Source: Amoebophrya sp. A120 (Eukaryota; Protista; Dinoflagellata). From it: a stretch of DNA of 64,000 nt. The position numbers and the translations under genes were made by a program. Positions 958 to 64,000 of the stretch are shown in pieces; the stretch's first letter is position 1; the number at the start of each line of letters is the position of its first letter. The notes under the pieces are model-generated. The model was given only the letters and a program-made list of their open reading frames with translations, did no database searches and was not told the DNA's origin. Location: positions 1,663,904 to 1,727,903 of the forward strand of contig CAJINV010000001.1 in assembly GCA_905178155.1 (NCBI GenBank). The letters run 5' to 3'.

Positions 958-2530
958 TCAGTCCGTATCAAAGTCGTCATCCTTGCAGAGTTTGTAGAAC
1001 CACAGCGGGACGGCGATGACAAAGAGCACCCACGCAGCCCACTTGACCGGGTTCGGCTCGTAGATGCCCGGCCACAACACGTCCCAGAGCGAGTACAGAA
1101 CGATCGGGACCGGCTTCGGCTTCGTTCGCGTCTGGTCCGGCTCCACCCAGGGCGCCGTGGCGATGGCCAGGTCCTTATCCTGTGTAAAAACGTCGCCACC
1201 CGAGGGCTGTCATGCAGATTTGCCATGACAGGAACATTTGTGATGCGCATCCCCATGACAAGTTTGTTCGATCGTGTTTGGGTGGAATTTGTAATGCTGT
1301 AAAGAGGATAAGCAGAGCGATTTGTAATGCGGCTGTCCTTGCTAACTTTCACTACCTTACGGACTGCAACTTGTCATGCGTCACTTCCAAAACTCCTTAG
1401 GTTTGTCTTGCAAAATCCCCATCTTGACTCTGGGGTGGGGACGTTTTTACCTAGGATAGTCCTTCCGGCCCTTGGTGCGCGCGTAGAGGATGGGGGTTTC
1501 CGGGTTCCGCGGGGTCATTTTATCGTAAGGAAAAATCTCCTCCCCATATCGAGACAGGATTCGTGATGCTGGATCTGCGTACACAAATGCGCTCTGTATT
1601 GCAGGAAGGCATTGCGGCCAGTAACAAGTCTAGGTCGGGGCGTTTGGTCTAGTTGCTCAGCATTGCAAACGGCTGCCCCCTAGGCCCAACAGCATGCCAA
1701 ATCGCTTCCATAATGGGACGGGAGCTTCGGCGCTTGTGTTCTTGCAAGACAAATGTGATTTGTGAGCACAAATTAGCAACACAAATTTTCGGAAACATAC
1801 CTTTTCAATATGGGGAGGGGGATTTTTCCTTGCAATACATTTCCGTGATCCACCACTGGTGCAGCGCCTTCTTGTTGTCCGGGTCCGGCGGTGCGTGGAT
1901 CAGGTAGAGCTGGCTCCTCCCCGTGTCTATCAAGTGCAAATATCGATCTGGGTCTGGAAACTTGTCGTGCTAAAGTGTGTTTGGTGGGCGGACTGCAATA
2001 CGCAGCCAAGCATGACAAATTTTTCAGATGCTATTGTTTTTGTGTTCTTTCGTTTTCCGCATGACAAGCTGCGTTTTTGCATGATAGGCAAGAGGCCCTT
2101 GCTCGTGCATTACACATTTCTACTGAGTCATGCCAGACAAGCATGACAAACTTGCATTCTTCCAGACCCATACATCATATTTGCATTTGATAGTGTCGTT
2201 CAGCGGGCGGCAAAACATGATGCACTCCCACACCCGGAGCTGGCCCGCCTCGGAGAACCCCTTGAACTTTTCCACCCGGTCGTGCCAGAACCACATCATA
2301 TGCTGGTACAGCCCCGGCATGTGGTCGGTGCTCACCGGTGGCAGCGCGACGCCGTCGAAGCGGTAGGGGACCACCTCGCCCGGCCCGTCCTCCGTGTGCG
2401 CCACGAACATCACATTGGGGTAGTTCGCCGGTACCACCTGCTCGTTCGGCACGCCCAGAAAGGCAAGAATCGCGCCGATAAAAGCGACCGAAATGGACAC
2501 CGGCACGCTTATGCGGAGCGGAATCGTCAT
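958..2530 (-). CDS. Hypothetical membrane protein (~230 aa, hydrophobic segments at both ends), 4 exons split by 3 introners
   Basis: Removing 1928-2192, 1521-1837 and 1176-1458 (each plus one 5-bp repeat) joins the ORFs in frame: MTIPLRISVPVSISVAFIGAILAFLG...RPLNDT|GRSQLYLIHAPP...WWITEM|TPRNPETPILYARTKGRKD|LAIATAPW...WAAWVLFVIAVPLWFYKLCKDDDFDTD*. Confidence 0.8.
1176..1458. mobile_element. Introner (TIR non-canonical intron), 283 bp
   Basis: TIR TATCCTGTGTAAAAACGTC / GACGTTTTTACCTAGGATA; perfect 5-bp direct repeat GTCCT; excision restores the frame. Confidence 0.9.
1521..1837. mobile_element. Introner, 317 bp
   Basis: ~30-bp TIR TATCGTAAGGAAAAATCTCCTCCCCATAT / ATATGGGGAGGGGGATTTTTCCTTGCAATA; DR CATTT; frame restored. 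Confidence 0.9.
1928..2192. mobile_element. Introner family B, 265 bp
   Basis: TIR TATCAAGTGCAAATAT...TGGGTCTGGAA / TTCCAGACCCA...ATATTTGCATTTGATA; DR GTGTC; frame restored. Confidence 0.9.
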
Positions 2531-4179
2531 GGTTCGAGGTCGTGTGGTGGCTCGGACGAGACAGCTTACTGCAGAATAAAGCAAAATCAGCCGCTGCGGC
2601 GCAGGCGTTGATGCGGGGAGATTGTTCTTTTTCGACTACTTATCATATATTGCTGCAGCCTTGTATAATTACGCCCATGAACAATGGTAATGGAGCGACC
2701 AACTGGAGATCCTTCCTACCCTACTATGGATGTGAATGTGTAGTGAAACAAACAAAGCTCAGTGCAGCGACAAATCAAGTAATGGCTCATTCGAGATCGG
2801 AGGTCTAGTTGGTGTGAGATTGGAAACAAAAACACCTCCTTCACTAGAAAAGCGAAACAAAAAATTGTGAGTCCGTGACTGTAGTAACCATGTCGATGGA
2901 AAGTACCCGTGAAACCAAATTACTTGCATGCAAGTCGTTCTCGGTGATGTTGATGAAAAACCTATCTGTACTATGCAGACGATCGCTATGCTATGTGACC
3001 ACAGGCACTTGGCAATTTGCGCGTCTCCGAACTGCATTGCAAGCGTTTTGCGCCATTTTGTCCTTATTTTTTGTTTTCATTTTTGAAAATGGTGCTGACA
3101 GTGACAACACAGAAAGACATTTATTCATCGTATCACCGGATCATCTGCAATTCTTGGTCACTATCGGTTCGAGATCGACTTGATCAATCGTGAACTTTTT
3201 CGAGTTGACAACCGTTCACGACAAGTTGGTTGCGCATGATGTTGAAGAACACCTTTCACCTTCACCTCTTTCTTATAGAGCCGCCAGGTGTCTCGTCCTT
3301 TCCTGTCAGTCCCTGGCACTGACACTGGCGGCGACAATAGATGGCTGGTATATACATCTTCTCTATGACAGTGGGAAGTGCTTCGACTTACCAGATGTTG
3401 GGGGAGGACGACCGCGTGACAACTTATCTCCTTTAGTAAGTTGCCGTCGGTCTACTTCGAAAAGGAAAAGGACTCGTGGTGGGGAAAGTTGAATTGTCTT
3501 TCTTTCATCGCGAAGTAGAATTGTCTTTCTTTCAACGCTTCGGGACGAGTCGCGTGTTGTTCCACATTTGCGACGAAAGCGGTAATCAATGGGAAGCAGC
3601 ATCTTCGAGGCCGCTTAGTTACTCTACTGAATAGGTGGAAAATCAAATCTTTATTTGGACTTCTTGTGAGTTAGGTTGAATGCGAAGACTTGTATAGGTA
3701 AGCAGATGGTTCTATATTCTGTCTCCTACGCATACATTTGAAAATAGTTGGCACAGCCGGTACTAGCCTCGTAGTGTACACTTATAGCAGGAAGACCAGC
3801 AGCTTAAATTGTTCTTTTCGTTGTAAATACGAATGATATGGGCTTGTTGCCATAAGTGAGGCATGATGCGTGTGTTGTTGCTTCTCCTTATATTAATGTT
3901 GCTTTTTAGTATGTTGCGCTTGGATATCTTGATTGTTCTTCTTCCCATTTTCTTATGCCTTTTGAAAAATTCTTTCTTTAGACTCTTGCTTGTAATCCTC
4001 TGGTGACATGTTCAATGATCATGTTCATGATGCGCAATCATGTTTCAGGATTCTCTTGCGCTGCTTGGTGTAAGTCCTGCCTCCCCTACTTACAGCAATG
4101 TACTACACACCTTAGAAGGTACGGATAACTCTGAATAAAGTTCACAGACCTGCTGATCGTCGGCGTTTCAATCATCTGC

Positions 4180-62239: not shown

Positions 62240-64000
62240 TCATACGCTCCTTCCATAAATCGTCACACCGGACTCACCTAGAGTAGTCGTACTGGTAGTA
62301 GTAGTACCCTCCAGAAACTCCAATATCATGGCATGCGGTCCTGCTAATGGTCCTTCATGGTTTCGCCAGTCCCGGTCTTTCGTCGTGGCTTTCAATGCGG
62401 CTTGTCTCGCTACGAACTTATTGACTCTTTCTTCGCGTCTTCTTCGGTCCAGAACACGCTCAACATGGTGGTCAAAAGCACGAAACAAGGAGCCACAAGC
62501 ACAGCAAAAAGAAAAAAGAGCCAGTGCTGTCAGAACCACGACCAGGCCAATGTCAGCAGCTAGACCAAATCGCCGCACTTCCAAAAAGGATGCAGGGATT
62601 TCACCACGAGAAGCCCCGTAGCCACCCGACACATTTTGGACAGCGACAAGCTCCGTGAACGACCATGGACTTCTCGAGCTGCCAGCTGCCACGCGCGTGC
62701 CGGACTCGGCGACGACATGGCCGAAATTTTTCGCGTACGTACTTCCCAGGTGATGCATCATCGTAGCGGTCACAGGAAACCCAGCCTGCAGCCCGCTTCT
62801 CGGCATGCTTTGCAGAAACGCTGCGAGCGTGCCTCCGCGTCCGCTGAGCCCGCCCGTAGATGTGGAGAGAACGCCATCAGCCAATCGCGTCGTTGCGTTT
62901 ATAATGGTCGCTATGTCCAGGCCCGCATCTGTGTACCCGGGTGACCCCCGGGTCATGCTTGCGTATCGAATGCAGATGTGTCTGGGACTGGAAGGCTGTA
63001 GTATACTATTAACCTGTCTACAGGGGGAACAGGAAGCACCTCCAAGGATGACGAGTTTGCCTTTGCGCTACGTCTCGCGGAACGTGCATGAAAAAGAAAA
63101 TAAAGCCGCGACATGATGACAAGCCGTGGTGAGATAGAGATATCAGGCGGGGCGCTGCATCATATTAACACGCTAATGAACCCCGCGCATGACAAGTCTA
63201 TACAATCTTCCACACCCCGACAACTTTGCATTTAATACAGCCAGCGAGTAACTCAAGGCCGAATCGTCGCTGAGGTCCATTTTCAACATTTGTCTCGCGT
63301 CATATGAGATTCCACAGCCACCCCTACCCATCGTTTCTCCTCGTCGCAAATGCAATGCAAACAAAGAAGTCACGACCAGCGAAAGCCACGCTACTGCTTT
63401 TCGGGAGCGTCCCCACAGGACAAATTCAAATTCTGGAACTAGATCAACTTCACTTTCAACTAGAATACGGGTGCAGATTTGTCGGCCACATTTTTGCAGC
63501 TCCTTGCGTTGCTGCTCATGCTTTTTCACATGGGGAAGTCGGCAAGGGAGGAATGACATCTCATAGATCAAAACTGTTCGCGATTGCATCCATCTCGAAA
63601 GACAGGGGCGCCATCTGCTGTGACATGGGAAACAGGACTGCAGTGCGCTGAAAAGGGTGCAGGACCAGCGTTTTCCGCCTAAAATCTTCGTCGCGCGCGA
63701 CTGGCCACGAGTACCGGTGTAAGGCGTCGGCGTACAAAAGCGCCTCGTCGCGAACTCGCAGAGCCAGGCTCGCGCTGTTCGAAGATCCCGTCAGGAACGC
63801 GTTAAGTGCGACATAATACGCGTCGATGACGCCCCCGGCGCCCGCCGCTGCTGTTGCTGGAAGTGGAGTGAGTGCAAGCCGCTTCGGATTTTCTTCCTTT
63901 TGCGGCCGCAGTAGCATGGTGCCGGACGGTTCCTGTATCGGCTCGCCGTTCTTCATGGATCTCGGTGAGAAGACCCGAATGGCCTTGGCAGACTGCCCGG
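62240..64000 (-). CDS. 3' part of a type I membrane-like hypothetical protein
   Basis: ORFs 63561-63956, part of 63173-63589 and 62240-62956; TM IGLVVVLTALALFSFCCACG near the C-terminus; one introner. Confidence 0.6.
62964..63237. mobile_element. Introner family B (diverged), 274 bp
   Basis: TATCGAATGCAGATGTGTCTGGGACTGGAAG / CTTCCACACCCCGACAACTTTGCATTTAATA; flanks TTGCG/CAGCC; element+5 bp gives SYSLA(G/S)MTRG in frame. Confidence 0.75.

Follow-up and report, generated by a model that had tools for sequence, protein, structure and literature searches.

Inverted-repeat introns in a 64-kb stretch of the Amoebophrya sp. A120 genome and the pattern of their removal

The stretch of the dinoflagellate Amoebophrya sp. 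A120 analyzed here (64,000 nucleotides of contig CAJINV010000001.1, positions 1,663,904 to 1,727,903 of the forward strand; hereafter the window) contains a set of TAT...ATA inverted-repeat introns, whose occurrence is confirmed as real and far above chance. These are the introner elements of Amoebophrya A120, i.e., inverted repeats flanked by a 5-bp duplication, a class already published for this strain in 2021 (Farhat et al., PMC7789003); therefore, the window adds examples and not a discovery. New relative to the published account are three points: the removal of the element plus 5 bp is independent of whether the two copies of the duplication match; elements are removed in both orientations; and the position of the cut is bracketed by three residues of gene models. 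The elements likely inserted as non-autonomous DNA transposons. As for their removal, the explanation that we favor, at a probability of about 0.5, is that they are taken out of the pre-mRNA by a relaxed, hairpin-guided spliceosome that operates without U1.

The elements and the loss of element plus 5 bp

Excising an element together with 5 bp leaves both flanks open for longer than any other choice at all 20 elements tested. Further, a phase-aware Markov coding model, trained without the neighboring exons, ranked this removal above that of the element plus 3 or plus 4 bp at 19 of the 21 window elements, and placed it first at 44 of 49 elements from metagenome loci (described below), including 13 of the 15 with an imperfect repeat. 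At the protein level, the window encodes three proteins that are present in the database (P0001, P0122 and P0127; two of them, P0001 included, labelled Amoebophrya sp. A120), and these lack the element plus 5 bp at all six junctions; the gene models of A120 were built from aligned transcript assemblies, according to PMC7789003. P0001 maps to the window with exactly these bases absent at each of the three elements of the USP gene: 11838-11996 (159 bp), which interrupts the His box, and 12842-13103 (262 bp) and 13191-13461 (271 bp), two members of one family that lie in opposite orientations and are both removed. The USP orthologs P0002-P0004 align without gaps at these three junctions, the His box included, with no residue extra or missing. 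Likewise, P0122 lacks the element plus 5 bp at 27033-27184 (152 bp), as does P0127 at both 62964-63237 (274 bp) and 63303-63565 (263 bp; short terminal stem; 3 of the 5 repeat positions matching). At 27033 and 62964, whose decayed repeats match at 2 of 5 positions, the rule persists. The position of the cut seems to be governed by distance from the stem and not by homology between the repeats.

In the 14-3-3 gene, the exons around the element in the protein core (52625-52904, 280 bp; repeat 3/5) stop at Pfam position 139 and restart at 142, and removal of the element plus 5 bp leaves exactly two residues. The original prediction for this window, made from its letters, had stated that such removal restores conserved proteins. 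This holds to the residue for USP and for 14-3-3 at 52625, and by reading frame only for the phosphatase and the AAA protein, where the fit was tested at that level; the Walker A region was also named as restored, and the motif itself lies upstream of its element (55253-55565, 313 bp, perfect repeat), which follows directly downstream of it.

The element set was built up from an unbiased scan for paired arms with flanking repeats, relaxed scans, self-BLAST and a terminal profile. The relaxed, family and terminal-profile searches gave 20 elements within 1176-63237, and a 21st (63303-63565) surfaced through the mapping of P0127. The prediction had counted 22 in coding sequence: all of the 21 are in coding frames, and their number (20 in its range, 21 with 63303-63565, plus a long relative) comes to within one or two of 22 without matching it exactly. 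Minus-strand reading frames contain all 21, and every window gene examined is on the minus strand, in agreement with the unidirectional gene clusters reported for Amoebophrya. Element lengths range from 108 to 319 bp, the one exception being an element of 1620 bp with a nested insert. The strict class (TAT/ATA ends without deviation, paired arms and a direct repeat exact over its 5 bp) has 12 members in the window as against none in each of 10 simulated windows. A looser class has 20 in the window and 4-12 in the simulated ones; therefore, loose hits alone include chance. Five weak additional TAT/ATA candidates, together with loose hits, were taken as chance.

Across 40 element ends, the first three positions are T in 39, A in 39 and T in 40, and A occupies positions 11-13 in 32, 35 and 37 of them, giving a terminal inverted repeat with an A run. 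Among the end variants that had been predicted, CAT and TGT occur in the window, while no TAC end was found in it. The predicted 5-bp flanks are exact in 14 of the 21 window elements and imperfect in seven. Exactness was found solely at 5 bp, in these 14 and in 34 of the 49 metagenome-locus elements; a direct repeat exact at 3, 4 or 6-9 bp was found in none of either set. No target-site consensus emerged for the 5-bp repeat, which has no required bases. Copies within element families are 68-81% identical. Nearly every element also contains short internal motifs that are found again and again, in either orientation; these could be subterminal transposase-binding sites that also add to the hairpin.

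Comparable elements are present in a second assembly from a metagenome collection, where a 23-base element-end probe led to 39 short loci (L001-L039) with 56 element calls. Seven of these calls were dropped before counting (five inner arms, one wrong end and one at an edge), leaving 49 elements, which belong to the same families and occur at a similar density. None of the 39 loci is a counterpart of a window gene. The element end had no match among viral contigs.

Splice signals, cut position and route of removal

U2-type introns are recognized by a GT, GC or GA start and an AG end. Among the 21 window elements, none offers GT-AG in any register of the repeat, just as the prediction had found no common GT-AG pair on sliding the cut through it, and three permit GA-AG; GT-AG is possible in 5 of the 49 locus elements (first strand calls). 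Ordinary introns coexist with the elements in the same genes, again as predicted: five GT-AG introns of the USP gene (12191-12374, 13514-13650, 14679-14861, 15026-15266 and 15363-15784, minus strand) stand alongside its three elements. An interval taken as a canonical control (63299-63566) proved to be the element 63303-63565.

Nineteen elements fold better than shuffled sequence (z-scores of -2.0 to -9.6 in 19 of 19, with 20 shuffles each; -8.9 for 12842), as against z-scores of +2.2 to -0.9 for seven ordinary introns. In 13 of the 19, the three outermost pairs are formed. Further, family members occur in both orientations relative to the transcript. The predicted hairpin guidance is supported by both the folding and the removal in either orientation. 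An apparent orientation bias of 21 versus 2 (probe at the 3' end) fell to 12 versus 5 with a better strand model, and we do not claim it.

At repeats whose two copies differ, the junction residue depends on the number of upstream bases kept, and three such residues narrow down where within the repeat the cut falls. The Thr at the 27033 junction of P0122 needs at least three upstream repeat bases to be kept, and the Ser (62964) and Ala (63303) at the junctions of P0127 need at most four; given one common register, this places the start of the intron 1-2 nucleotides (nt) ahead of TAT and its end 3-4 nt beyond ATA. We infer that the 5' cut lies 1 nt (possibly 2) before TAT, so that the intron would start with N-TA-Y, like the G-TA-Y donors of the host. 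Of the ordinary introns of the window, chosen by eye and with 22 of 23 resolved, 19 of the 22 have a GTA donor, which in 13 reads GTAT or GTAC. The 5' ends of the elements begin with TA in 70 of 70, as TAT in 69 and TAC in one, and the three changes at end positions 1-2 in these 70 elements are all at 3' ends. In Table S4 of PMC7789003, the nine predominant boundary pairs of A120 all start with N-T, and nine pairs of strain A25 start with TT, the repeat of A25 being reported to begin with TTA plus two purines. The boundary pairs of both strains would fit a donor with a free first base. The mismatch positions in decayed repeats revealed no register (5-11 of 60 per position).

Taken together, these observations suggest the following mechanism. 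A transposase supplied in trans would make a 5-bp staggered cut and insert the element in either orientation. In the transcript, the arms would pair and draw the ends of the element together. With a 5' cut 1 nt (possibly 2) before TAT, the intron would begin with N-UA-U, the equivalent of a host G-UA-Y donor in which the first base is free; this start would be available in either orientation because both element ends are alike. The 3' cut would be set by distance, at 4 nt (possibly 3) beyond the stem, without an AG. Cuts at these distances would remove one copy of the duplication and thereby restore the frame whether or not the copies match. U2, U4, U5, U6 and most spliceosome proteins are reported to be present in A120, with U1 not found (PMC7789003), and a relative that has U1 splices GT-AG introns (bioRxiv 2024.09.05.611473). 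One modified spliceosome lacking U1 fits at least as well as the second pathway beside the normal spliceosome that the original prediction had envisaged, because the element end can supply host donor bases +2 to +4.

Several points weigh against this mechanism. Free first and last intron bases are hard to reconcile with known spliceosome chemistry, and no branch point was identified in the elements. The register rests on three gene-model residues and assumes that all elements share it, and an aligner preference could set both its upper bound and the motifs of Table S4. The canonical introns of the donor comparison were picked by eye. A transposase, too, would be expected to keep TA at both ends; of the 70 3' ends, 67 are unchanged, and three changes versus none is not a significant difference. 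The element at 63303 is removed though its fold is no better than its shuffles (z-score of -1.3). No RNA joint across an element appeared among the 15 of 377 joints shown, the raw-read runs X10 and X12 contributing one and zero reads. Finally, no transposase was found, the six open reading frames (ORFs) of the long relative at 37860-39600 matching no Pfam family.

Removal at the RNA level, at points set by distance from the stem, is highly probable when the reading with a U1-less spliceosome is taken together with that of a separate, spliceosome-independent route. In the latter, the main idea of the original prediction and in our view the less probable of the two, a structure-measuring endonuclease with a ligase, or a ribonucleoprotein (RNP), would cut at a distance of 1-2 nt on the 5' side of the stem and 3-4 nt on its 3' side and join the exons, in convergence with Euglena. 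In its most specific form, offered equally tentatively, a protein or RNP acting as a ruler on the base of the hairpin alone would make its cuts 1 nt upstream and 4 nt downstream of that base and ligate the exons, with no sequence-defined splice sites at all. The lack of fixed boundary bases in any register, the removal of both orientations within the one USP gene and the strength of the element hairpins relative to ordinary introns all suit this route, as do the paired-end introns of Euglena, with a 3-nt 5' and a 5-nt 3' spacer (PMC12501133) and reported as circles without lariats (PMC11282704). What speaks against it is that positions +2 to +4 of the host donor are mirrored by the element end in a register permitted by the junction residues, that the reported loss of U1 requires a changed spliceosome anyway, and that no candidate enzyme was found, with no match to any Rfam model, those of self-splicing RNAs (group I, group II or other) included, in the 64,000 bases at gathering thresholds. 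It is the resemblance of the N-TA-Y start to host G-TA-Y donors that leads us to favor the U1-less spliceosome over a separate pathway. A further reading, that the usual splicing machinery uses cryptic GT-AG sites close by, has in its favor in-frame pairs within 30 nt of the ends of 18 of 20 elements; it is nonetheless highly improbable, as no such pair exists for the elements at 1176 and 1521, and all six junctions covered by a database protein use the element plus 5 bp within the repeat. The use of cryptic sites, which the original prediction had set against itself, is contradicted at each of these six. Bulge-helix-bulge geometry, the substrate of the tRNA endonuclease, needs pairing between exon and intron; a random direct repeat cannot give this, and such removal was set aside by reasoning and not by computation.

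Sequencing reads bear on the alternatives that act outside splicing. Reads of four runs (X1, X4, X10 and X12, of twelve) were placed on 25500-45400. Run X1 is DNA-like, with a depth of 21-33 on single-copy contigs and up to 70,835 over elements, and at two element ends, 26043 and 30777, 119 and 109 of its contigs, respectively, diverge exactly. Contigs of single-copy sequence continue 24-132 bases into the elements without a branch at all seven of the element ends listed, so that no common empty allele is visible. This stands against the precise excision of the elements from DNA, which the prediction had offered as an option and by which, in some life stage and in the manner of the internal eliminated sequences of ciliates, the mRNA would come from an edited copy. 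The anatomy of the elements is that of transposons, and loss of the element with one copy of the duplication would restore the empty site. However, repeat-guided repair needs matching copies, yet the rule of element plus 5 bp holds at a repeat of 2/5. The evidence base on this point is one DNA-like run, with 362 of the 377 joints unseen and the 15 shown (X1) all repeat-derived, and contigs drop rare variants, which leaves room for minor or stage-limited excision; overall, we regard excision from DNA as very unlikely. A contig of run X4, presumed to be RNA, matches 34097-34555 and then leaves the window beside the repeat of the element at 34561-34718 (158 bp, perfect repeat) with 103 unplaced letters. 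As for reverse-transcriptase template switching across the hairpins, with the true mRNA keeping the element or ribosomes bypassing it, a hairpin with direct repeats is a known substrate for this artefact (PMC13149111), and the published support is from cDNA sequencing. Retention of the elements, though, would disrupt conserved proteins, among them USP at its His box and 14-3-3 in its core, and the loss of 5 bp persists at repeats of which little is left, so that we give this account hardly any credence.

The decayed repeats are natural markers of the cut position and make the mechanism cheaper to test. The end of an element may also serve as a donor that lacks the G. If the U1-less spliceosome is correct, loss of U1 and of the requirement for G and AG would let a transposon enter exons anywhere at little cost, leading to mass intron gain. 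If a hairpin-base ruler is at work, insertion of this class of transposon would be harmless at any site and in either orientation, as an independent parallel to Euglena. In practical terms, TAT...ATA plus 5 bp offers a simple annotation rule for such genomes.

Other elements and features of the window

The remaining elements are all on the minus strand. Three with perfect repeats lie in an unnamed gene (about 934-2530): 1176-1458 (283 bp) and 1521-1837 (317 bp), the two lacking an in-frame GT-AG alternative, and 1928-2192 (265 bp), a member of a family of about 265 bp. The large gene at 16671-27730, of about 3,000 codons, carries three elements and has no Pfam match. No full-length protein of 2511-5000 residues was found for it in the database, where it is represented by fragments of 105 and 128 residues only. 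Its elements include 26043-26198 (156 bp; repeat 4/5) and 19601-21220 (repeat 2/5), a member of a 150-bp family enlarged to 1620 bp, whose removal with 5 bp would join frames of 1445 and 977 codons. The nested insert in the latter (19643-21104, about 1.46 kb) lies between two copies of an 8-bp word with a third copy at 20411, carries the window's single N, opens with a 4-base microsatellite and is matched at 93% by sequence in L029; its six ORFs gave two weak, irrelevant Pfam hits below the cut-off.

Further along are 30310-30463 (154 bp), 31380-31635 (256 bp), 35287-35605 (319 bp) and 35936-36043 (108 bp), all with perfect repeats, the last with the TGT variant at the 3' end of the transcript, and 30515-30777 (263 bp; repeat 3/5), with the CAT variant at that end. 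The histidine phosphatase gene has an element with a perfect repeat at 43012-43160 (149 bp), opposite in orientation to its relative at 11838, and the C-terminal tail of 14-3-3 has one at 50808-51030 (223 bp; perfect repeat). Duplicated pieces of the 3' end of the phosphatase gene lie at 40676-41480 and 42100-42400, and in X1 the segments 39840-39932 and 41601-41690 also occur as a second copy that has diverged.

The long relative at 37860-39600 (1741 bp, minus strand) has a 31-bp inverted repeat (28 of 31 paired) with an introner-type end and no direct repeat. By depth (125 versus about 25), about five near-identical copies of it exist, and it differs from the X1 contig at nine positions. It is flanked by exon-like sequence, and its removal with 0 or 3 extra bp fits the likely exon frame, whereas removal with 5 bp does not; it is possibly a rearrangement, a mis-join or a long family member. 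Separately, an intergenic foldback of 279 bp at 61353-61631 has arms that match almost perfectly, with stretches of 40 and 61 bp free of any mismatch, an inner palindrome and ends unlike those of introners.

Relation to known systems

With respect to the published introners of A120, we see no difference in kind: TAT ends, direct repeats, families, genes of mixed intron type and non-GT-AG boundaries are all shared. According to PMC7789003, A120 has RNA-seq-supported non-canonical introns amounting to over 60% of its introns, and its introners number 29,850 in 1,954 families, at about 240 nt. They bear an 8-20 nt inverted repeat starting with TAT, then about 7 variable bases and then AAA, and direct repeats of 3-5 nt (with a 5-bp example in the legend of Fig. 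S19). Both intron types mix in its genes and an alternative splicing mechanism is proposed, while the cut position relative to the hairpin is left variable or unknown (Fig. 3 legend). The accessible text of that paper does not state the strict rule of element plus 5 bp, the register, the independence from the repeat match or the likeness to GTAY donors. The original prediction had likewise taken Amoebophrya introners as described and their removal mechanism as unresolved, in agreement with this account; a search of the literature by title and opening abstract, which did not cover subscription papers, found no paper that resolves the mechanism.

The introner-like elements of Polarella, Symbiodinium and Aureococcus (bioRxiv 10.1101/2020.10.14.339549) are also inverted-repeat transposons that make introns and lose one target duplication, and some of them likewise work in both orientations. 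However, they carry or recruit a G-started donor and a 3' splice site supplied by the element or the duplication, which biases their target, whereas the 5-bp target in A120 has no required bases. On the transposon side, TDD-4 and TDD-5 of the Ginger2/TDD group, whose transposase is of the integrase type, likewise make 5-bp duplications (PMC2836005). The Ginger ends are TGTNR as against TAT in the A120 elements, where TGT occurs once in 140 ends (70 elements), and no transposase was seen; a relationship to Ginger2/TDD is thus a lead only. An A120 introner family with ORFs like those of long terminal repeat elements between its inverted repeats has also been reported (PMC12130899).

The nonconventional introns of Euglena (PMC12501133; PMC11282704) offer a further comparison. 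Their code of N3-CDG ... CHG-N5-6 plus a purine is not that of the A120 elements, which have TAT/ATA ends, unconstrained flanks and no requirement for a purine at the fifth position of the repeat. In other words, the Euglena introns need CAG/CTG, a purine at the exon start and spacers of 3 and 5-6 nt, as against TAT/ATA and 1-2 and 3-4 nt in A120. Circular intron products are reported for Euglena (PMC11282704). The two systems share paired ends, the lack of GT-AG, coexistence with ordinary introns, an origin resembling that of miniature inverted-repeat transposable elements and a 5' spacer shorter than the 3' one.

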